The notes below the pieces were generated by a model, which ran no database searches, was not told the DNA's origin, and saw only the letters and a program-made list of their open reading frames with translations. From the NCBI GenBank assembly GCA_003635305.1, contig PYJE01000068.1:21882-68170 (forward strand): 46,289 nt of DNA, written 5' to 3'. Made by a program: the position numbers and the translations under genes. Source of the DNA: Candidatus Poribacteria bacterium (GTDB lineage Bacteria; Poribacteria; WGA-4E; WGA-3G). This document shows positions 12,542-25,228 of this stretch, one piece after another (positions within the stretch are counted from its first letter, which is position 1; each line of letters opens with the position of its first letter).

Positions 12542-12712
12542 TTTACGTTATGCGATGCTTGCATGAATTAAGACAGAAACCGACAAGTTTTTTGTCACCA
12601 GAAATTGTTGTTTGTTTTCGGCCCGTTTAGAAACACGCTAAAAAATCACTACGCCTCTCTGGCAAATGTCTGTGCCCGCACCTCGCGCGCGCCAGACAGG
12701 AGAAGAACCTAC

Positions 12713-15700
12713 GTGAAGAAACGCATATCTTTCGCCAAAACAGACGTTCGCACACCCCTACCGAATTTGATTGAGACGCAGCAGCGCGCTTACGATGCCT
12801 TTTTGCAGCGCGACACGTTTCCGCACAAGGACAGCGGCCTGGCGGCAGTCTTCAACGAAGTCTTCCCTATCGCTGACTTCAACGAAGTCTCGCGCCTTGA
12901 ATTCGTCCATTACCAACTCGGCGAACCGAAATATACCCTTGACGAATGCCTCGCCCGCGGGGTTACCTACCAGGTCTCCCTCACCGCGCGGCTCCGCCTC
13001 GTCGTCTGTGAGAAAAACGCAGAAGACGAAGAACCGCACGTCGTTGATATCCGCGAGTCCGAAGTCTATTTCGGCGAAGTACCGCTGATGACTGAAAACG
13101 CCAGCTTCATCATCAACGGCAGCGAACGCGTCATCGTTAACCAATTGCACCGCTCACCCGGTGTCATCTTCCTCAATAAAACGCTCCCAGGCGGACATCG
13201 CTCCCCCACGGCGCAAATCATTCCTTACCGCGGGGCATGGATAGAATTCGAGGCGGACTCTAAAGATACCCTTTCCGTCCGGTTAAACAAACGTCGCAAG
13301 ATACCCGCCACCGTCCTGCTCCGCGCACTCGGGTGGGAGACGGATGCCGACATCTTGAAACTGTTCGCCGAACCAACGCGCGTGATGCTCTCCGGGTGGC
13401 GCGTCACTGAAGTAGCACTACCCGAATGTCCAACCCAAATCGATGCACTCTTAACCGCGGCGGAACATCGAAAGTTGGATGCCGACTACCCCGGCGCGGT
13501 AGCTGAGCTTTTCTATGAAGTCGTCTCCGCGTCCGATGATGCAACGTGCCCTGTCGCCGTCGGCGACAGGCTCACGCCTAACGAGTGGGCAAGGCACCGC
13601 AAAACGTGGAAAGATACCACCTTTGCACGCATCTGGCGTATCGCCAAGCATTACCGCCCCGACTATCCTTACCCCATCGGCGACATCGTGGCCGATGCAA
13701 CCTATCAGAAGGCACGGAAGGATTACCCGGGGATTGAGATAGAACCGTGCTATCGCGTCACAGCTGTCACTGACAAAGGGTGTCCGCTGGAAGAAGGACA
13801 GATGCTGACATCCAAGGAGCGCACCCGCGCACGCCGGAAGTGGAGAGGATTCACGACAGAACGACTCCTGCGCGTCACGAAACTCCTCAATACCGGATGC
13901 CCCTTGAACGTCGGCCAGCACCTCACGCCTACCGAATACACCGAAATGCTCGGAAAGCATCCTGACGCTTTCAAGGCAGAACGGATTGAATCGACAGACA
14001 TCGCCGAAACTATCGGCAGCGTCTGCGCTGAACCTATCGCCGACCCGAGGACTGACGAACTGCTAGTGACAGCGAATACGCTACTCACCGAAACAGAAGT
14101 CGAACGGCTGAGGGGTGCCGGTGTGGAGATGCTCACGGTGTTGACACCCGAATCCGCCAAAGCTCTCCGTTTTTTACGCAATACCCTCGAACGCGACAAA
14201 GAATCGGACTACGAGGCCCGCATCCAGGCCACCGGACGGCAAAGCGAAACACCCATTCAAGATGTCGCCCTGCTCAATATCCACTCTGTCCTCAGACCGG
14301 GGGAACCGGTGAGTATTGAGGCGGCGCACCGGCAACTCGCTTGGCACTTCTTCGACGCGCACCGCTATGACTTGGGGACTGTGGGACGCTACAAAGTGAA
14401 CTCAAAACTGCGACACCTCTCCGTATACGGTGAGCCGCCCGATGAGAAACACCGAACGTTGCGCCCGGAGGACATCGCGGCGACACTCCGGCACCTGCTT
14501 GATGTCCATAACGATCCTTCGTTGATAGACGACTTGGACCATCTCAGTAACCGTCGTGTACGCGGTATCGGCGAATTATTGGAGAACCAGTTCCGCATCG
14601 GCCTATTCCAGATCCGGCGCGCCACGCGCGAACGCATCTCCTCCGCCGATATGAGCAACTGCATGCCGCCAATGCTGATTAACCCGAAGCCGCTCATGGT
14701 TTCACTCCGCGAGTTCTTCGGTTCAAACCAACTCTCGCAGTTCATGCAGCAGGTAAATCCGCTCGATGAATTGACGCACAAGCGGCGTATCTCTGCCATC
14801 GGCCCCGGCGGACTCTCGCGCGATAGAGCCACCGCCGCCGTTCGCGATGTGCATCACACACACTACGGACGCGTCTGTCCCTTGGAGACACCGGAAGGCC
14901 CTTCTATTGGCCTCCTCGTATCGCTGGCGTGTTATGCGCGTATCAATCCTTACGGGTTCATTGAGACTCCTTATCACAGAGTGGTGCCCGGCAAGTCGAT
15001 GGCTGATATGGAAATTGAATACCTCACCGCCGATAAGGAAGACAAGGCCCGCATCGCCGCCAAAACGATACCGCGCGACGCGAAAAGGGGAGAAACGCCT
15101 GACACGGGCATCCAGCTGCCCGCCCGAAAAGGCGAAGATGTGCTTGCCTTACCCCTGTCCGAGGTAGACTACGTCGGCATCTCGCCATCACAGATTGTCG
15201 GTGTTTCCGCAGCACTCGTGCCTTTTTTAGAACATGAAGACGCGAACCGCGCCCTCATGGGCGCGAACCATCAACGACAAGCAGTGCCGCTCATCAAGCC
15301 CGAAGCACCACTCGTCGGCACCGGCATGGAAGCACGCGTCGCCCGGGACTCAGGGGCACTGTGCATCGCCAAACGCAGCGGCACCGTCGAAAGCGTCTCC
15401 GCCGCGGACATCATCATCCATACCGATGAACCCCTGCACGCAGACATCGGCGAACAACACAAGAGTGAGATGGGCTACGACCGGTATGAACTCCACACTT
15501 TCAAGCGGAGCAACAGCGGCACCTGCATCCATCAGCGGCCCATCGTCTCCGTCGGCGACACAGTGGAAGCAGGCGACATCATCGCCGACGGCACTTCTAC
15601 CGATGAAGGCGAACTCGCGCTCGGCAGGAACGTCCTGTGCGCCTATATGCCGTGGGGCGGACACAACTATGAGGACTCCATACTCATCAGCGAAAGCCTT

Positions 15701-17260
15701 GTCCAAGACGACACTTTCAGTTCCATTCATATCGAGGAATTCGAGGTGGAAGCCCGCGAAACGAAAATGGGACCGGAGGAAATTACGCGCGATATTCCCG
15801 ATGCAAGCCAACAGCGACTCTCACAACTGGACGAAGAAGGAATCATCCGTGTCGGAAGCCTTGTCAGCGCAGGCAGCATCCTCGTCGGTAAGATTTCACC
15901 CAAAGGCGAAAGTGAATACGGACCGGAGGAGAAACTCCTGCACGTTATCTTCGGTGAAAAGGTGCGCGAAGTCCGAGACGCATCCACATACGTCAAACCC
16001 GGCATTGAAGGCATCGTGATTGATGTCAAAGTCTTCTCACGAAAACAGGAACCAAGCCGGCACTCGCTGCAAAGCCTCGTTGACGCAGACCAGCTCCGTT
16101 ACGATGCCAAGAAGAAGGCCATCGAGGAGAAGTTCCACGAACACCTCCTGGCCATCCGCCGCCGCCGAGACGAAGAAATTCGGAACGCGCTCATCGGATG
16201 CGAATTGGCACAGCCACTCTTCAGAGGTATCGACACCGAAGCACCCCTTTCGCGCACAAGCAATGCCGAAGAACTGGACGAGTTGGACCATATCGGGGAA
16301 CTGCTGGCAGAAAGCGGCGACATCGTGACGCACGAACTCCTGCACACACCCGGCCTTGTGCTCAACGAGATTCACGTCACCGCCTCAAACGTCATGGCAT
16401 ACATCCAACGCGTTCAGGAAATCGCCGAGGAGCGCATCGCCGCCTATACCGAAGAAAAATCAAGCCAGCTCGAACAGATGGAACTCGGGGACGAACTCAA
16501 ATCCGGCGTGCTTAAACTGGTGAAAGTCTATATCGCGACGACGCGCCACATCTCCATCGGCGATAAAATGGCAGGCCGCTACGGCAACAAAGGGGTGGTA
16601 GCAGAAATTTTGCCCAAAGAGGATATGCCCTATCTCCCCGATGGAACACCGGTGGATATCGTGCTGAACCCCCTCGGCGTGCCATCACGGATGAACGTCG
16701 GGCAAATCCTTGAAATTCACCTCGGCTGGGCATGCCACGCACTGGGCATCCATGTTGAATCGCCTGTCTTTGACGGCGCAACCGAAAAGGAAATCTTCAC
16801 GATGCTCGACAAAACCGGCTTGCCGGAACGCAGCAAGAAAACCGGGAAAAGCATCCTTTACGACGGCAGAACCGGAGAAGCGTTCGGACAGGAAGTCACC
16901 GTGGGATATGTCTACTTCCTCAAACTGAACCATCTCGTCGCCGACAAGATGCACGCCCGTTCTACCGGGCCCTACTCGCTTGTTACGCAGCAGCCGTTGG
17001 GCGGCAAGGCGCAACATGGCGGACAGCGGCTCGGCGAAATGGAGGTGTGGGCATTAGAGGCATACGGTGCCGCGCATACCTTACAAGAAATGCTCACGCT
17101 CAAATCCGACGATTTCATGGGCAGAGCCAAAATTTATGAGTCGATGGTGAAAGGGCTCAACCCCGAATCCCCCGGCACACCGGAGTCGTTCAACGTTCTC
17201 GTGCGCGAATTGCAGGGCCTCGGCCTCAGCGTTTCCTTGAATCCGCCTGAAGAAAAATAG
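12713..17260 (+). CDS. rpoB: DNA-directed RNA polymerase subunit beta, with repeat-array insertion
   Basis: '[19 protein letters not shown]', 'CPLETPEGP', 'NRALMGAN', '[14 protein letters not shown]', 'HARSTGPYS', '[17 protein letters not shown]'; GTG start after AGGAG. Confidence 0.97.
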   Translation: [1515 protein letters not shown]

Positions 17261-17428: not shown

Positions 17429-20400
17429 ATGGCAACCCCATTTGACAGTATCTCCCTCAAAATCGCTTCGCCGGACGAAATCAAAGCGTTGGCGAAGCGC
17501 ACCTGCTGCAAACGCAGAAGCAGCACCGTCAACCCCGGTGAACCCTTCTCCTGCCCAGAAATGCACACCTGCAACTGCGGCGAAGTGAAGAAGGCAGAGA
17601 CGATTAACTACCGCTCCTTCCGGCCCGAACTCGAAGGCCTCTTCTGTGAGGCAATTTTCGGGCCTTCCAAGGACTGGGAGTGTAACTGCGGAAAATATAA
17701 GCGGATTAAGCACAAAGGCGTTATCTGCGACCGGTGCGGCGTGGAAGTCACACGCCAGCACGTCCGCAGGGAACGGATGGGCTACATCCAACTCGCGTCC
17801 CCTGTCTCGCATATCTGGTTCTTCAAGGGGGCCCCATCGCGCATCGGAGCCTTCTGTGACTTCTCCGCACGGCAGATTGAGAACATTCTCTACTTTGACG
17901 CGTTCCTGGTGACTGAAGCGGACGAGGAACTTCAAGCACAAGGTATCCTCAAGCCCAACCAACTCATCAGCGAGGCAGAATTCGATACCTACAAAGTCCA
18001 ATACCGAGGCCGATTTAAGGCAGGTGCCGGCGGCGAAATACTTGCCAAACACCTCGCGAGCTTGGACCTCGAGGCAGAATGCGAGCAACTCGCTAAGGAA
18101 CTAGAGGAAACGCGCAGCCATCAGAAAAAGGTGAAACTCGCCAAGCAGCTCCGCATGAGGGAAGACTTTCTGAGGTCTGGACAACGTCCCGAATGGATGA
18201 TCATCGATGTGCTTCCCGTAATTCCCCCGGATTTGCGGCCCCTCGTCACCTTAGATGGCGGACGATTCGCCACCAGCGATCTGAACGATTTGTATCGGCG
18301 GCTCATCCATCGAAACAACCGCCTAGCCAAACTCATCCAGATGCGCTCGCCCGAAGTCATCTTGCGCAACGAAAAACGGATGCTGCAAGAAGCCGTTGAC
18401 GCATTCTTTGATAACGGCCGACACGGCAGAAGCGTAACAGGACCCGGGAATCGCGAACTCAAATCGCTCTCGCACGTCCTCAAAGGGAAAGTCGGACGCT
18501 TCCGACAGAATCTGCTCGGCAAACGGGTCGACTACTCCGGCCGCAGCGTCATCGTCGTCGGACCTGAACTAGCACTACACCAATGCGGCATCCCGAAACA
18601 GATGGCAGTGGAGTTGTTCAAGCCATTTATTATCGAACGGCTGCAAGCCTATGGCTACTCCAGCACCATCAAGCGCGCCAAGTCTTATGTCGAGAATATC
18701 GATTCTGGTAGCCCAGTGTGGGACGTGCTCGAAGAAGTCATCGAAGAACACCCAGTGTTGCTCAACCGGCCACCGACACTGCACCGGCTCGGCATTCAAG
18801 CATTCATGCCGGTCTTGGTGGAAGGAAAATCTATCCGAATCCCACCACTTGTCTGCAAAGCGTTCAACGCCGATTTTGATGGAGACCAGATGGCAGTGCA
18901 TGTGCCGTTAACCGCCGAAGCTCAGGCAGAAGCGAAACTGCTGATGCTCAGCAGCCATAACATCTTGAAGCCTTCGCACGGCGGACCGATTGCCGTCCCC
19001 GAACTGGATATGGTGCTCGGACCGAGTTACCTTACCAAGACGCTACCAGAACACGATGCGGACGCGCAACTGCTTCACAAGGTCTATACCCATCAAAACA
19101 GCGATACCTCTCTCTTTGATGAGATTCGCAGGAAACCGTGGTATCACCGCCGCTACGCGCATCCGGAAGAAGTCATCGCCGCGCACGGTGCAGGGCAACT
19201 CAAACTACACGACAGCGTCCAGTTGTTTTTCCCGGAAAATGGCAGGCAGCGCGAACCAATCCTCACCACCGTTGGCCGAGTGATTTTTAACGAGGTCCTC
19301 CCAGCCGAATTGGACTGGGAGGACGAGCACTCCGGACAGCAACTCCCGTTTTTCAACGGCGAAGCAGGGGGGAGGCAGCTCTCTGAAATCGTTGAAGACT
19401 GTTTCAACACTCCCGACCTCGGCACGCGGGCGACTGTAGAACTGCTGCAGCGACTTCAAAAACTCGCGTTCGAGTATGCAACGCAAAGCGGGATTTCGCC
19501 CAGCATTAATGATTACATCAAACCGCCGCAGCGGCAGGAACTGTTGGAAAAGACAGAGGAAACTATTGCCGAACTCATCGCCGCATCCGCCGCAGGTGCC
19601 GATACCGAAGAACTGGAGAACGAGCAAATCCACCTATGGTTCCAAGCACTGCGAGAGATGGAAGGCCTCATGTTTGCTAGACTCCCAGAATTGGAAACCC
19701 GCCTCGTTGACAGGGACGAACATGTCAAAGGGTTCAGTCCGGTGCATATCATGGCAGATAGCGGCGCACGGGCCCGGAAAAATCCGTTCATGCAAATCAG
19801 TGCCGTCCTCGGGCTGAAAGCGAAGCAGAGCGGTGAAATTCTGCTGCCGCCGATTACCACCTCCTATCGCGACGGATTGGACGTAATCGACTACTTCAAC
19901 TCCACCTACGGCTCCCGAAAAGGATTGGTGGATACGGCGATGAAGACAGCGGCATCGGGTTACTTGACGCGGAAACTCGTTGATGTCGCGCAAGACGTGC
20001 GCGTCACTGAAACGGATTGCGGCACCCTCCACGGCATCAAGAAATTTGCCACTGAAGGAGGAGAACTCGCTTTTAAAATCCGCGGACGCACCGCGACAGA
20101 GGATATCCTACATCCCAATACCGGTGAAGTCCTCGTCAAAGCCGATGAACTCATCTCAGCCGAAGCAGCGGCACTGCTTGAAAAGAGTAAGGTAAAAATT
20201 GTCACCGTCCGTTCGATGCTCACCTGCGAGACCGAGGAAGGTGTCTGCGCCAAATGCTACGGACACGATTTGACGACGAACAGGCTTGTCAGTGTCGGTG
20301 AAGCTGTTGGCATTATCGCCGCGCAATCCATCGGGGAACCCGGTACGCAACTCACGATGCGGACGTTCCACACCGGTGGTGCGGTTGAGGAAGTCTCCGA

Positions 20401-23400
20401 TGCACGCCAGCGTAAAATCCTAGCAAAAACGAGTGGCACTGTGAGGTTCCGCGATTTCCATCCCGGCATCACTGTCCGCCAAGAAGGCGCTCTCTGGATA
20501 TCCACAGGGCCCGGCACTTCTCCAATCGGCACAACTTCCTGGGCCGATAATCAGGCTGCTCTGAGGCGGGATCCAATAAACACGGAATCCGCTGAAAAGA
20601 AAGAATTCGGCAGCCGGGCCAATCTGGACGCTCCCGCCTACAAGGTCACGCGCGTCATTCACGCCGATTGCAAATTACAAAAAGGCGACTTGCTGAGCGA
20701 GAAACAGTTCTCTGAAAACGCGCAGCGTTACAAAGGCTTTGAGACAGTCCCATGGCAGCATCGCGTCACCACCGTTCACGATGATGCCTGTCCCTTGAAA
20801 GAGGGAGACCGGCTTTCTGCCGCGCAGTTGCATCAAGCCAGAAGGGCATACGGCTTCACGCGCTTTGCAACCGAGAAGCGCGAGATAGAACACGTCCGCC
20901 TTTCTACTGTGAACGTTCACCCCGGCGATTTGCTCACCGAAGAAGAAATCGCGCAGCGCAAAGCAGAGATTCGGAACAAATTTGATGGCGAATGGTGTTA
21001 CCGCATCCCAAAAACCGGCGAAATTTTCAAGTCGGCTCAGGAATTGTTGCCCTTGGGCATCCCTGTGGAGCCCCTTGAAGATATTGCGGATACAGCAATG
21101 CCAGGAGACACGTCTGCTGAAATGGCGGAAGCCCTGACTTCTGCGGATACATCGCTAGCGGGACGCACGTCTTTTGAACGGGTTTACCGCATCACCGCGC
21201 GGACACATCGGGATTTCCCTTATGCTGTCGGGGATATCGTGACCGCGGAGGAGATTGCGCCGTGGTTCACGCCTTTTGAGGAGGCAAAGAACCCCGTCTA
21301 TGTCATTGATGCAGACGCACCCTTGCATGCAGGCGAGACGTTGACACGCTACCAATACGAGGAAGTGTGTCGCGATTATCAGCCGTTTGAATCCGAAAGA
21401 GCGTCGGAAGTGTTGCACCACGTTACGGCAGTGCATCATCCCAGCTGCCCACTCAAGCCGGGTGAAGATTTAACCACAGCGGACAAGGATGCGATGCTCG
21501 CTCGCTGGATGGGTTTTGAAGCGCAGAAACTGCGGCACCGGGTTACGCACATCTATCATCCGGATTTTCCATACAAACCGGGCTATTTGATGAGCGATGC
21601 AGAGGCCAAAAAGTGGGCAAGCGAATTCCCCGGCATTGAAGTCCGGCATTCCGGCGTGTTTAGAACAACCCCTATCAATCGCATCACCGCCGTTCATTTC
21701 CCAGACAGCCCCTTGCAGAAGGGTGAACTGATGACGCGCAGCGAGGCATCGACATACCGCAAGACGTTCAAAGGGTTGGATGTCGAATCCTTCTACGAGG
21801 TTACTGAAGGACACTACTATCGGGCAACCGAAGGCAAGCCAGGCTTCACTGCAGAAGCGTTAACAGGGCCCGCTTTTACCGGGAAGGGTTCCAAGAACGT
21901 CTGGCGCGTTACCGAAGTGTTCCATCCCGCGTGCAAACTTGAGGTTGGACAGGATATTTCCAACGCCGCTTACAAGAAAGCGCAAAAGGACTTTCCAAGC
22001 GTCAAGCCGGGCGATATCCTAACGCAGGCGGAATTGGAAACGTGGCACCCCTTAGCCGCTGAGCAGGTCCAGCAACTCACCGAAGCGGAGTATGAGGCAC
22101 GACGCAAATGGGAGGCGAAAAACAAAACGCGGGGTAAAACGGATCTGAAAATCCAAGAGAAGGTCACACCCCAACACCGCGTGCTGGATGTCCATCACCC
22201 CCAACTCGCCATTGAAATCGGCGAAGAACTGGCGGATAAGGACTACAAGAAGCTCAAGCAAAAATACAGAGGGTTTGACGTTGAAACCCTCCATGGTGTC
22301 ATCCTAGATGAACCAGAGCTGGAGGAGCCCGACATCCCAGAAAGTGAGCTCGCTCAAGCGAAGCCGGACTCCACTGTGGTAGAGCACTATAAGCACGTCG
22401 TCAACAATCTAGAACTTCCTGTAGCGCAGTGGGAAAAGCCGCGCCTCGAGAAATTCTGGCGCGTTAAGGCTGTTCTTCCCAATCTAGAGTGTGAGTTTTC
22501 GGTAGGACAGAATCTTTCTGAAACCGAATATCAGGAGGCCTGCAAGAAGTATCAGGTCCACCTCGAAAAACCGAAGAGGCGTTTTCCCATTGATAAGGCA
22601 GAAATCTTTACAGCGGATGAATACCGCGCCCGCTGGAAGTATACCGTCACGGCTGTCCATCATCCGAATTGTCCGTATGAGGTAGGGACAGAATTATCCG
22701 AATCGGAATACCAAAGCGCGCTCAAGCATTACCCCGGCTTTGATAGGGACGATCCGGCACTGCAGATGAACATTGAGGTAGAGACAGCCGATGGCCGTCG
22801 GGTGCCGCATCAGATCAAGGCAGATTACTCCTTCTCCATCAAGGAGGGCGATACCGTCAAAGAGGAAGAAACCCTCGCTGAACTCCACGAGAAGACAGCG
22901 AACAGGGATATCGTTGCAGGTATCCCTCGCGTGACAGATCTTTTTGAGGCGCGCCAGCCTAAACGCGAAGACGCAGCGGAAATCGCGGAAATCGAAGGAT
23001 ACATTGAATCGGCAGGATCCAAATCAGGTGTTCCGACATACCGCATCGTTCACGAGGGGCACGAAAGCCGCCTCTACGCCATTCCGGACGAAAAACGGCG
23101 CGTCACCGAAGGCGACTTGGTAGAAGCAGGACAGCCGCTCACGGATGGATACCTCAACCCGCACGATATCCTCAAAATCGGGCGCGTCTTCATTGAAGAT
23201 GTCCCAATTGAAGGCGCAGAGGCCATTTGGACATACCTCATTGAGGAAATCCAAAAGGTTTACGGCGCACGCGCCATCAACGACAAGCACCTCGAAGCCA
23301 TCGTCCGGCAAATGATGAGGAAGGTGCGAGTGCTGAAACCCGGCGATACGCAGTTCCCCCATAACAGTGAGGTGACGCGACAGAAATTCGCTGAGGTGAA

Positions 23401-23698
23401 CGCGAAGGTTATTGACAGCGGCGGTGAACCTGCCACCGGCGAACCGATTCTGCAAGGCATCAGCCGTGCATCGCTCAGCACAGAAAGTTTCATCTCTGCC
23501 GCCTCGTTCCAGCAGACGACGAAGGTGCTGACAGATGCCGCTGTCAAAGGGCAGACAGACAAACTCTCCGGGCTGAAGGAAAACGTCATCCTCGGTCGCC
23601 TCATCCCTGCAGGAAGTGGACTTCCGGATTTACAGCAACTGGAAATCACGGAGGTTGACACTGACGAAGAGATGGAGGCACCGGAACCCGCCGAGTAA
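17429..23698 (+). CDS. rpoC: DNA-directed RNA polymerase subunit beta' (2089 aa; giant trigger-loop insertion)
   Basis: Zn ribbon 'CNCGKY...CDRCGVEV', 'GKRVDYSGRSVI', catalytic 'NADFDGD', 'GEPGTQLTMRTFHTGG', 'GLKENVILGRLIPAG'. Confidence 0.97.
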   Translation: MATPFDSISLKIASPDEIKALAKRTCCKRRSSTVNPGEPFSCPEMHTCNCGEVKKAETINYRSFRPELEGLFCEAIFGPSKDWECNCGKYKRIKHKGVICDRCGVEVTRQHVRRERMGYIQLASPVSHIWFFKGAPSRIGAFCDFSARQIENILYFDAFLVTEADEELQAQGILKPNQLISEAEFDTYKVQYRGRFKAGAGGEILAKHLASLDLEAECEQLAKELEETRSHQKKVKLAKQLRMREDFLRSGQRPEWMIIDVLPVIPPDLRPLVTLDGGRFATSDLNDLYRRLIHRNNRLAKLIQMRSPEVILRNEKRMLQEAVDAFFDNGRHGRSVTGPGNRELKSLSHVLKGKVGRFRQNLLGKRVDYSGRSVIVVGPELALHQCGIPKQMAVELFKPFIIERLQAYGYSSTIKRAKSYVENIDSGSPVWDVLEEVIEEHPVLLNRPPTLHRLGIQAFMPVLVEGKSIRIPPLVCKAFNADFDGDQMAVHVPLTAEAQAEAKLLMLSSHNILKPSHGGPIAVPELDMVLGPSYLTKTLPEHDADAQLLHKVYTHQNSDTSLFDEIRRKPWYHRRYAHPEEVIAAHGAGQLKLHDSVQLFFPENGRQREPILTTVGRVIFNEVLPAELDWEDEHSGQQLPFFNGEAGGRQLSEIVEDCFNTPDLGTRATVELLQRLQKLAFEYATQSGISPSINDYIKPPQRQELLEKTEETIAELIAASAAGADTEELENEQIHLWFQALREMEGLMFARLPELETRLVDRDEHVKGFSPVHIMADSGARARKNPFMQISAVLGLKAKQSGEILLPPITTSYRDGLDVIDYFNSTYGSRKGLVDTAMKTAASGYLTRKLVDVAQDVRVTETDCGTLHGIKKFATEGGELAFKIRGRTATEDILHPNTGEVLVKADELISAEAAALLEKSKVKIVTVRSMLTCETEEGVCAKCYGHDLTTNRLVSVGEAVGIIAAQSIGEPGTQLTMRTFHTGGAVEEVSDARQRKILAKTSGTVRFRDFHPGITVRQEGALWISTGPGTSPIGTTSWADNQAALRRDPINTESAEKKEFGSRANLDAPAYKVTRVIHADCKLQKGDLLSEKQFSENAQRYKGFETVPWQHRVTTVHDDACPLKEGDRLSAAQLHQARRAYGFTRFATEKREIEHVRLSTVNVHPGDLLTEEEIAQRKAEIRNKFDGEWCYRIPKTGEIFKSAQELLPLGIPVEPLEDIADTAMPGDTSAEMAEALTSADTSLAGRTSFERVYRITARTHRDFPYAVGDIVTAEEIAPWFTPFEEAKNPVYVIDADAPLHAGETLTRYQYEEVCRDYQPFESERASEVLHHVTAVHHPSCPLKPGEDLTTADKDAMLARWMGFEAQKLRHRVTHIYHPDFPYKPGYLMSDAEAKKWASEFPGIEVRHSGVFRTTPINRITAVHFPDSPLQKGELMTRSEASTYRKTFKGLDVESFYEVTEGHYYRATEGKPGFTAEALTGPAFTGKGSKNVWRVTEVFHPACKLEVGQDISNAAYKKAQKDFPSVKPGDILTQAELETWHPLAAEQVQQLTEAEYEARRKWEAKNKTRGKTDLKIQEKVTPQHRVLDVHHPQLAIEIGEELADKDYKKLKQKYRGFDVETLHGVILDEPELEEPDIPESELAQAKPDSTVVEHYKHVVNNLELPVAQWEKPRLEKFWRVKAVLPNLECEFSVGQNLSETEYQEACKKYQVHLEKPKRRFPIDKAEIFTADEYRARWKYTVTAVHHPNCPYEVGTELSESEYQSALKHYPGFDRDDPALQMNIEVETADGRRVPHQIKADYSFSIKEGDTVKEEETLAELHEKTANRDIVAGIPRVTDLFEARQPKREDAAEIAEIEGYIESAGSKSGVPTYRIVHEGHESRLYAIPDEKRRVTEGDLVEAGQPLTDGYLNPHDILKIGRVFIEDVPIEGAEAIWTYLIEEIQKVYGARAINDKHLEAIVRQMMRKVRVLKPGDTQFPHNSEVTRQKFAEVNAKVIDSGGEPATGEPILQGISRASLSTESFISAASFQQTTKVLTDAAVKGQTDKLSGLKENVILGRLIPAGSGLPDLQQLEITEVDTDEEMEAPEPAE

Positions 23699-23764: not shown

Positions 23765-25228
23765 ATGCTCAAACTTCCCGAACTCAACAGTTTACATTAC
23801 GGCGATTGCCTAGAAGTCATGCAACAATGGCCCGATGAAACCATAGACCTCGGCTACTTCGATCCTCCTTTCAACAGCAACGCCAAATATCACCAACTCT
23901 ATGATACAAAGGACGACAACCGCGGCACACGCGACGCACAACTGCAAGCATTTGACGACGCATGGAGATGGAATACCACCGCCGCCGAACGCGTCGCAAA
24001 TCTGCTCGATGCACCCGCACATCCGGCGCATCAGGTGATAGAAGCGTTCGCTAAATGGCCCGGAGAAGGCGGCATGCTCGCCTATCTCAGCTACATGGCA
24101 GAACGCATCGCGGGCCTACACCGGCTGCTCAAACCCACAGGCAGCGTCTACCTCCACTGCGATGCAACCGCCGCGCATCCCCTCAAACTCCTCATGGACT
24201 GTATCTTCGGACCGGAAAACTTTCGCCGTGAGATTGTGTGGCAGATGAAATCGCGTTCCGGTTTCAAAAGCCGAGCCGCGAATTGGATCCGCGACCACGA
24301 CACTATCCTCTATTACGCCAAATCAGACCGGGCGACGTTCAACAAGCAGTTTGAACCCTATTCCGAGGAATATGTGGCACGAAGTTTCACGCAAAAGGAT
24401 GCGGACGGACGGCGGTATCGTCAACGCGGGAATAAACGCTACTACGAAGATGAAGGCGGCATCCCCTACGGCGACGTATGGGACGACATCCACTCCTTTC
24501 AGACAGCGACGCGGAGCCAAGAGTATCTTGGGTATCCTACCCAAAAACCGTTGAAACTTCTGGAACGCATCATTCAGGCATCCTCTAATGAAGGCGACAT
24601 CGTGCTGGACCCGTTTTGTGGCTGTGGGACAACAGTTGCCGCAGCGGATAAACTGAATCGAAAGTGGCTCGGCATCGATATCTCACTGCACGCGTTGGAA
24701 GTCATCAAGCTAAACCGCTTTCCGGGGCGCGCTATTCCCACGAGCGGCATTCCTGCAGACTTCGCCGCAGCAGCGCAGCTAGCCAAGCAAAATCCACGAC
24801 ACTTCGAAGTCTGGGCACTGAATTGCGCCTCGCAAGGACTCGCACCAAACGATGTCCAAACCGGTGATGGCGGCATCGATGGAAGAGGCCACACGCTCCT
24901 GCAGCCCGATGAAAGCAACTCCAAACTGGTGCTTGCGCAGGTGAAAGGTGGGAAATTCCAATTGAGCCAACTCCGTGACTTCTTGTGGACGCTGGAACGG
25001 GAGAAAGCGGCGATGGGAGTGTTTATCACGCTGAACCCTGTCACCTCGCGGAACGCACAAGCGGAACTGCTGCGACTCGGCACCGTCACCGTCGGCACGG
25101 AAACATATCCGCGCGTGCAAACCTGGTCACTCCAGGAACATTTCAAGGGACAGCGGCTACGGATGCCAGATATGAAGAACCCTTATACCGGCAAACCGCT
25201 CCAACCCTCGCTGCAATTGATGTTGTAG
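23765..25228 (+). CDS. N4/N6 DNA methyltransferase (beta class) fused to a C-terminal Mrr-like PD-(D/E)xK domain
   Basis: 'DPPFNS' precedes 'YPTQKP' and 'DPFCGCGT'; C-terminal 'FEVWA...DGGIDG...LAQVKGG...GVFIT'. Confidence 0.88.
   Translation: MLKLPELNSLHYGDCLEVMQQWPDETIDLGYFDPPFNSNAKYHQLYDTKDDNRGTRDAQLQAFDDAWRWNTTAAERVANLLDAPAHPAHQVIEAFAKWPGEGGMLAYLSYMAERIAGLHRLLKPTGSVYLHCDATAAHPLKLLMDCIFGPENFRREIVWQMKSRSGFKSRAANWIRDHDTILYYAKSDRATFNKQFEPYSEEYVARSFTQKDADGRRYRQRGNKRYYEDEGGIPYGDVWDDIHSFQTATRSQEYLGYPTQKPLKLLERIIQASSNEGDIVLDPFCGCGTTVAAADKLNRKWLGIDISLHALEVIKLNRFPGRAIPTSGIPADFAAAAQLAKQNPRHFEVWALNCASQGLAPNDVQTGDGGIDGRGHTLLQPDESNSKLVLAQVKGGKFQLSQLRDFLWTLEREKAAMGVFITLNPVTSRNAQAELLRLGTVTVGTETYPRVQTWSLQEHFKGQRLRMPDMKNPYTGKPLQPSLQLML

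Follow-up and report, generated by a model that had tools for sequence, protein, structure and literature searches.

Why the β subunit of a bacterial RNA polymerase (RNAP) should carry a string of five similar mini-domains, and where these came from, is the question raised by rpoB in a stretch of 46,289 nucleotides (the window) on contig PYJE01000068.1 of a Candidatus Poribacteria bacterium (GCA_003635305.1). A sequence-only reading of this DNA had noted five repeats of one kind inside RpoB at the β-i4 position, had recognized the same consensus in an array in β′, and had suggested that both arrays may form one structure. Our analysis indicates that the segment is probably a lineage-specific β-i4 insertion of five tandem mini-domains of ~39 amino acids (aa), which come from the polymerase's own β′-bD2 domain. 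Both large subunits are oversized, with 1551 codons for RpoB and 2089 for RpoC compared to 1342 and 1407 in E. coli.

Five tandem units at the β-i4 position of RpoB

The presence of five consecutive repeat units between ILKLF and the BBM2 module of β-i4 was confirmed. The units comprise 39–41 aa each and occupy positions 13397–13990 of the window, where the reading frame contains no stops. The start given by the sequence-only reading was correct, and its end at 13981 had cut the last unit three codons short. The features of this region are listed below; bit scores refer to a hidden Markov model (HMM) built from the β′ trigger-loop units of 41 related genomes (β′-only HMM).

12605..17260, + strand: rpoB (RNAP β), 1551 codons from the first TTG
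13397..13513, + strand: β unit 1, Y-type (...DADYPG), acidic, net charge −4; 22.5 bits
13514..13633, + strand: β unit 2, W-type (...NEWARHRKTWKD); 11.2 bits
13634..13750, + strand: β unit 3, Y-type (...QKARKDYPG); 14.9 bits
13751..13867, + strand: β unit 4, W-type, basic, net charge +5; 50.9 bits
13868..13990, + strand: β unit 5, Y-type; 24.9 bits; closest relative is native β′-bD2
14012..14143, + strand: single canonical BBM2 module of β-i4 (IGSVCAEPIADPRTDELLV...LTVL), matching the second half of E. coli β-i4

For a close survey, both genes were taken from 41 genomes of the order, 25 of them from the array-bearing family and 16 from three sister families. Genera within the array-bearing family are designated g1–g6 and other families of the phylum f2–f11. 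Three sites in RpoB were distinguished: site A is β-i4, site B corresponds to E. coli β ~602–645, and site C lies inside β-i9 (E. coli ~962–1028).

Alignment with E. coli and with array-less relatives placed the array in the position of the first half of E. coli β-i4, between '...ILKLFAEPTRVMLSG' and the BBM2 module 'IGSVCAEP...LTVL'. In the array-less relatives, ILKLF is followed by about ten residues and then directly by a single BBM2, and it is this sole β-i4 module with which the BBM2 at 14012–14143 also aligns. Units of the Y-type (...KDYPG) and the W-type (...RRKWKG) alternate along the array. The difference between the 5-unit and 3-unit arrays of relatives is exactly one two-unit block of 79 aa, and unit 2 is confined to the 5-unit clade of g1 and g4. 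Unit 4 holds the most conserved stretch, ER..RRKWKGF, which shows no or almost no variation in 15 genomes. In the same genomes, residues R145, R150 and K151 of unit 4 are invariant, as are some residues in units 4–5. Over 41 aa, unit 4 and the trigger-loop unit ERLYRVTAVNHPDCPLEVGELLTQKESSANRRQYKG share 49% identity, and the nearest non-orthologous units of unit 3 are trigger-loop units, too. The β array has a net charge of +1 and the trigger-loop insert of −24; the whole proteins are acidic.

The ratio of nonsynonymous to synonymous substitution rates (dN/dS) of the array was 0.48 in comparison with the closest genome (G002) and 0.13 in comparison with G001, for which dS is near saturation. 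The remaining part of rpoB yielded values of 0.15 and 0.11, respectively. Selection on the β-i4 array is purifying yet relaxed.

A tandem repeat at the DNA level was not found in the array and its GC content is uniform, indicating that the repeat is old and visible at the protein level only. A recent DNA-level duplication was ruled out by the lack of a tandem repeat, a foreign origin as judged from composition by the uniform GC content, and an assembly artefact by the presence of the array in single-contig genomes. An intein was likewise rejected: the segment starts with W-R-V-T and not with Cys/Ser, ends with ...AERIE and not with His-Asn before Cys/Ser/Thr, and displayed neither Hint motifs nor a Pfam match. 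Searches of the array against Pfam and NCBIfam gave no match, and a look-up in the ESM Atlas gave no usable match. A protein homologue search with the array retrieved five proteins, all of them RpoB; in a search with the single protein, the relatives with names were two Candidatus Poribacteria metagenome-assembled genomes.

Relation of the units to the native β′-bD2 domain

The β′ domains bD2 and bD7 have been named sLC ('small left claw', CATH 3.30.60.280) in the cited part of Alvarez-Carreno et al. 2024 (PMC11515920). When compared with 38 aligned native β′-bD2 domains, the β units reached an hhalign probability of 98.7% (E 1.6e-16) and the trigger-loop units one of 98.4%. The β′-only HMM detected a single copy near β′ residue 160–225 in the sister families f2 and f3 with 41–51 bits. 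Moreover, β unit 5 shows 46–49% identity over 35 aa to the β′-bD2 of relatives. In the window, part of the native domain was matched in rpoC:

17948..18010, + strand: native β′-bD2 (sLC), matched half, 12.1 bits; apparently same place as E. coli β′ 157–180 and PDB β′ 141–176

The position of the matched native domain agrees with the ranges given for bD2 in Table 2 of PMC11515920 (139–177 and 142–181).

The native β′-bD2 is degenerate in the source genus, where only its second half was matched; in other genera of the family it scores 25–35 bits.

In contrast to the high probability for β′-bD2, comparison of the β units with BBM2 modules from 15 RpoB proteins of this set gave an hhalign probability of 5%. 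The TGD/E motif, which section 2.3 of PMC11515920 describes as conserved in the BEAN domains of RNAP β (CATH 3.90.105.10), is absent from all five units, and the adjacent BBM2 has R-T-D-E or E-T-G-E. Trigger-loop units showed a weak local likeness to BBM2 in the hairpin-helix part (hhalign 64%). Judged from these comparisons, the array unit is distinct from BBM2 and is probably of the sLC type, derived from native β′-bD2.

Homology of the β units with an array in the β′ trigger loop

The second array of the window is located in the trigger loop of β′.

17429..23698, + strand: rpoC (RNAP β′), 2089 codons; TIGR02386 1425 bits; Rpb1 domains 1–5
20363..22921, + strand: trigger-loop region from TFHTGG to GIPRV, 852 aa versus 203 in E. 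coli

Twelve units of at least 10 bits are found at 20633–22750, flanked by what remains of the first and last Si3 strands. Measured as TFH..GLPRV, the insert reaches 943 aa in G002, and the range in the lineage is 624–943 aa. A Pfam search of the trigger-loop inserts of the source genome and of G004 produced no credible match. Apparently, only the first and last strands of Si3 are retained in the insert.

With the β′-only HMM, the β array alone scored 145.4 bits, whereas the maxima were 6.2 bits in 2000 shuffles and 5.3 bits in 25 other windows of 198 aa from RpoB. Across all 43,238 six-frame open reading frames (ORFs) of at least 50 aa in the source genome, which is 87% complete, RpoC (E 2.8e-145) and RpoB (E 4.4e-37) were the best matches, and the next best had an E of 0.32. 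The similarity between the arrays was also borne out by an HMM-HMM comparison: 36 β units and 34 trigger-loop units aligned over 42 columns with an hhalign probability of 99.6% (E 5.5e-25), a figure that is inflated because the β units had been preselected by their score to the β′ HMM. By profile comparison, the β and β′ units are homologous.

The assertion that both arrays follow the same consensus held for the core, RVTxV..CPL..G..LT..Y..Y.GF, and did not extend to the His at unit position 11 of the trigger-loop units. Of 251 trigger-loop units, 71% have this His, as does every one of the 34 units in the A2 alignment. At the same position, D (31%), N (22%) and G (15%) are found in the 55 β-i4 units and D (81%) in native β′-bD2. 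At this position the β-i4 units are closer to native β′-bD2 than to the trigger-loop units. Neither a unit-level tree nor a best-hit analysis indicated that the β array was copied as one block from adjoining β′ units. For the five β units, the closest matches differ in kind and comprise trigger-loop units, bD2 and half units of the cassette type described below.

The trigger-loop units have a strongly conserved stretch H-H-P-x-C-P-L, which both the β units and native bD2 lack and which could be a candidate metal or partner site.

Distribution and phylogeny of the arrays

The trigger-loop array (7–12 units of at least 10 bits) was detected in 25 of 25 family genomes and in none of the 16 genomes from sister families. 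Among 111 further family genomes, 108 were matched by the unit profile, nearly all of them with 7–17 matches. Single matches were obtained in f2 (10/11) and f3 (24/29), and the 24 genomes of f4–f11 had no match. Multi-copy genomes are restricted to the array-bearing family among the 176 genomes of the phylum. Site A is occupied in 69 of the 112 family genomes, namely in 3/3 of g1, 1/1 of g3, 2/2 of g4 and 63/65 of g5, and in 0/40 of g2 and 0/1 of g6. Of the 25 closely surveyed family genomes, 15 carry units at site A, two at site B and nine at site C, while eight are without any RpoB unit.

A core tree of RpoB, calculated from 1254 columns after removal of all inserts, revealed the trigger-loop array as a synapomorphy of the family. 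Site A represents one gain, in a clade with an SH-aLRT support of 100, and site C one gain inside the site-A clade.

In a search of 1.84 billion representative proteins, 28 reached E 0.001 with the unit profile. Ten of these were examined: five carry RpoB or RpoC domains, two are RpoB fragments as judged by eye, and three are membrane proteins with tetratricopeptide repeats (TPR).

The TPR membrane proteins P0022, P0023 and P0035 contain the short repeats of the inserts described below, two PD-(D/E)xK-like domains and sLC units alternating with half units, and further carry a membrane helix, a coiled coil and the TPR repeats. Their middle part shows 29–35% identity to the β-i9 insert of g5 RpoB. 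No equivalent of them was detected in the source genome with the unit HMM. For the g5 β-i9 insert itself (G010), Pfam returned only a sub-threshold ML-domain (E 0.0066, 17.2 bits versus a cut-off of 22.7).

Relationship between the β and β′ arrays

According to the sequence-only reading, the β-i4 and trigger-loop arrays would pack into one homotypic superstructure on the downstream face of the enzyme, and the β array would exist for that purpose. The homology of the units is consistent with such an assembly. The β array was never found without the β′ array, all site-A genomes (69/69) belonging to the family in which the β′ array is near-universal. Furthermore, the β array, in which one unit is basic (+5), has almost no net charge, and the trigger-loop insert is acidic. 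In cyanobacterial RNAP, a long trigger-loop insert of similar size, the body of Si3, adjoins the β lobe according to the cited part of PMC10895346. Because of this arrangement and the complementary charges, physical contact between the β and β′ arrays is plausible. For E. coli, the sequence-only reading had taken the β lobe/i4 and SI3 to be neighbours that can contact each other; in the cited passages of the TraR paper, Si3 contacts the β′ shelf and jaw, TraR bridges lobe-Si1 and Si3, and a direct contact between Si1 and Si3 is not described.

Several results argue against interdependence of the two arrays. The β array is always nested in the β′-array family as a single nested gain on the tree, and the co-occurrence therefore counts as one event. 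In g2 and g6, site A is empty in all 41 genomes, the β′ array was nevertheless seen in 39 of them, and its size is unchanged at 624–645 aa. Copy numbers of β units and lengths of the β′ insert (TFH..GLPRV) did not co-vary across four genus-level lineages, as the following values illustrate:

g1: 5 β units, 852–943 aa
g4: 5 β units, 637–663 aa
g3: 3 β units, 833 aa
g5: 3 β units, 640–665 aa
g2 and g6: 0 β units, 624–645 aa

The same module is present at two further β sites (E. coli β ~602–645 and, in β-i9, ~962–1028), which by descriptions of the E. coli enzyme would lie away from the lobe. In addition, the β units are devoid of the conserved His of the trigger-loop units. The existence of the β′ array without the β array, the lack of co-variation and the other β sites imply that a single superstructure is not required by the data, and we consider it rather unlikely that the β array exists to build one.

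Nuclease-bearing in-frame inserts in related polymerases

Some relatives contain inserts in rpoB or rpoC in which similar units are combined with a nuclease domain.

L041:9016-10428, − strand: G011 rpoB insert, 471 aa, in-frame at site B; HNH
L045:11077-12402, − strand: G015 rpoB insert, in-frame; HNH
L033:7054-8316, + strand: G003 rpoC insert, ~410 aa, in-frame ahead of the trigger loop; REase_MTES_1575
L078:3947-5737, − strand: G168 (g5) rpoB insert, 597 aa, site B; two PD-(D/E)xK-like domains

RpoB and RpoC of G011 and G003 share 97% identity, yet the two genomes differ by in-frame inserts. The inserts have a length of 410–600 aa and are built from short 'YKVTxVP' repeats, a nuclease domain and then sLC-type units; the terminal sLC-type units of the G011 and G003 inserts are 45–49% identical to each other. 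The HNH endonuclease domain of the G011 and G015 inserts was recognized through PHROG families (E 3e-10 to 8e-8), Pfam HNH alone being sub-threshold, and REase_MTES_1575 in the G003 insert scored 80.8 bits. One exact rpoB site, between ETPYR and YLTADxED, is occupied in three lineages and by two nuclease types. Neither gene tree places G011 and G015 as sisters, and an approximately unbiased (AU) test rejected joining them (p 2e-43 for a group that was chosen after the tree was seen).

Compared to its sister, G011 displays 82–86% identity in the 100–200 bp beside the insert and 94–100% elsewhere. A test for co-conversion around this insert thus revealed a dip in the flanks, but no donor was identified. 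The nuclease-like domain is also encoded by multi-copy free-standing ORFs, some with stop codons, and it accompanies sLC units in a TPR membrane protein. Inspection by eye and with Pfam disclosed no Hint or splicing motifs in the inserts. The comparison of these sequences suggests that the inserts in relatives are a mobile in-frame cassette.

A more far-reaching interpretation would regard the sLC units as the arms of a new mobile element. Such an in-frame, non-splicing cassette of repeats, nuclease and sLC units would home into permissive surface loops of rpoB and rpoC, would persist in the mature protein and, once its nuclease is lost, would leave arrays behind, namely that at β-i4 and perhaps that in the trigger loop. 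We put this forward tentatively, as a possibility with the odds somewhat against it.

Origin and possible role of the β-i4 array

The history of the segment, probably a lineage-specific β-i4 insertion derived from β′-bD2, may be outlined as follows. In the common ancestor of one Poribacteria family, the module was multiplied to about 10–12 copies within the β′ trigger loop; later it was placed at β-i4 in one sub-clade, in 3 or 5 copies. Its spread within rpoB and rpoC probably took place by duplication and recombination, and at least part of it may have occurred on nuclease-bearing in-frame cassettes, which are still polymorphic in relatives. Because the frame is open, intein motifs are lacking and dN/dS is below 1, the array is expected to be translated as part of β. 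It would constitute a string of small, independently folding domains, which extends the lobe on the downstream-DNA side beside the single BBM2. The invariant basic stretch ER..RRKWKGF of unit 4 appears the most likely interaction surface, with nucleic acid or an acidic partner as the possible counterpart. The array would thus be an add-on to the lobe, and the β′ array would be independent of it.

Some observations weigh against this account. The dN/dS of 0.48 in comparison with the closest relative denotes a clearly relaxed constraint on the array compared with the core. The best PDB matches of both profiles were β′ chains at residues 141–176, which individually were not significant (E 0.03–1.3), and E. 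coli β′ 157–180 reached only 3 bits with the unit HMM. The preselection of β units in the hhalign comparison points in the same direction, and sequence homology is the sole basis for the fold ascribed to the unit and for the shape ascribed to the array. Finally, neither a nuclease nor a short-repeat remnant was present in the β-i4 array of any of the 15 genomes checked, which makes delivery of this array by a cassette a conjecture.

The array might instead be a functionless relic of a selfish nuclease cassette that entered a permissive loop, lost its nuclease and is now merely tolerated. In relatives, rpoB and rpoC harbour in-frame nuclease cassettes made of the same units, and these vary among genomes with 97% identity elsewhere; β-i4 is a permissive, 'dispensable' site in the cited part of PMC2939025, and the elevated dN/dS of 0.48 would suit a tolerated segment. 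However, the array has been retained across a clade that spans genera (g1 3/3, g3 1/1, g4 2/2, g5 63/65), dN/dS stays below 1 in both comparisons, the invariant basic motif of unit 4 is common to 15 genomes, and no nuclease or short-repeat remnant is left at β-i4. We therefore regard a functionless relic as quite unlikely. That the array is a further instance of the known β-i4 variation, for which one to six tandem BBM2 repeats have been predicted (PMC2939025, cited part), is highly improbable, since the shared site, the tandem arrangement, the similar unit length and the weak local likeness of trigger-loop units to BBM2 are outweighed by the hhalign probabilities (5% for BBM2, 98.7% for β′-bD2) and by the TGD/E motif, which the units lack and the adjacent true BBM2 has.

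Neighbouring genes and further observations

The rpoB frame is open and was recognized by TIGR02013 (1593 bits) and six Rpb2 domains (Pfam, NCBIfam); its true start may be located ~36 codons inside the frame that opens with the first TTG. Immediately 3′ of rpoC, an N6/N4 DNA methyltransferase gene (PF01555, E 5e-47) is encoded at 23765–25228 on the + strand. Ahead of rpoB, where ribosomal protein genes are commonly found, lies a gene for a peptidase S58 on the opposite strand.

With two Pfam families as probes, factors acting through the secondary channel were hardly detected anywhere in the order (G000–G040), within or beyond the array-bearing family. The N-terminal domain of GreA/GreB (PF03449) was found in 0/41 genomes of the order and in 9/14 controls, and the DksA/TraR zinc finger (PF01258) in 1/41 genomes and 6/14 controls.

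A second RpoB-like ORF of 1040–1108 aa was observed in the sister families f2 and f3 (G026, G028, G029, G031, G032, G034, G035, G037, G038 and G040; for example G038:C1:5272288-5272884). It shares 33–39% identity with the catalytic C-terminal part of RpoB (residues ~1316–1530) and may be an RpoB-like paralogue.

Comparison with known polymerase insertions

That small modules common to β and β′ accrete at permissive sites is an established principle, and β-i4 in particular has been predicted to hold 1–6 tandem BBM2 (PMC2939025, cited part). E. coli β-i4 (SI1, 'dispensable region 1') resembles the array in its site in the β lobe and in being a tandem of a small module. It consists of two BBM2 with an acidic surface (net −5), whereas here one BBM2 follows five sLC-type units with a net charge of +1. 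E. coli β-i4 points to downstream DNA in the cited part of PMC2939025; the same direction would apply to the array by analogy only.

The sLC domain as described in the cited part of PMC11515920 shares with the unit the length of ~40 aa and the homology to the native β′-bD2 of the lineage. It is known from there as two single copies in β′, in contrast to the ~10–12 copies in the trigger loop and 3–5 copies in β reported here. Extra sLC insertions are mentioned in the same source, apart from its Table S4, only for rare β′ variants of Firmicutes and of the DST group. The cyanobacterial Si3 is a trigger-loop insert of about nine SBHM/HABAS domains and was called 'the largest known' (Qayyum et al. 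2024, PMC10895346, cited part). In Si3 it is SBHM that was multiplied; the poribacterial insert of 624–943 aa (TFH..GLPRV) is of the sLC type, and cyanobacterial β has no array matching that at β-i4. Among the resemblances to the cyanobacterial case is counted that Gre was not found in the 41 genomes searched.

With inteins and other homing inserts, the inserts of the relatives share the in-frame position in essential genes, the HNH or PD-(D/E)xK nuclease and the recurrence at one exact site. They differ from these elements in the lack of Hint or splicing motifs and in their flanking units, which are kept elsewhere as stable protein parts; the β-i4 array additionally has no nuclease.

The suggestion of an undescribed RNAP architecture was upheld in that no description was found in the literature searched, subject to gaps in older literature. 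Nothing on polymerase arrays of Poribacteria was found there, including the RpoB passages of PMC3444138; an earlier mention as BBM1 is possible, since the search did not extend to Iyer et al. 2004 and Lane & Darst 2010. While the principle is known, the module (sLC and not BBM2 or SBHM), its presence in β and the scale of the trigger-loop array are apparently new.

Lineage-specific RNAP inserts described so far consist of BEAN/BBM2 in β and of SBHM/HABAS in β′. sLC adds a third module, which is intrinsic to the polymerase, and its multiplication in both subunits widens the catalogue of RNAP surface evolution. The trigger-loop insert reaches and in part exceeds the size of cyanobacterial Si3 and shows that the mobile catalytic trigger loop has acquired a giant insert independently for a second time. 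If the inserts of the relatives are mobile, they would provide a mechanism for 'domain accretion' in essential genes, which so far has only been inferred. Should the sLC units indeed be the arms of a mobile element, a selfish element disguised with a host-protein domain would be remodelling the polymerase of this family. For the Poribacteria, uncultivated sponge symbionts, the arrays are clean markers at the level of family and clade. Most interesting are the remodelling of both large polymerase subunits by one borrowed mini-domain throughout the family and, besides it, the possibly mobile nuclease cassettes.

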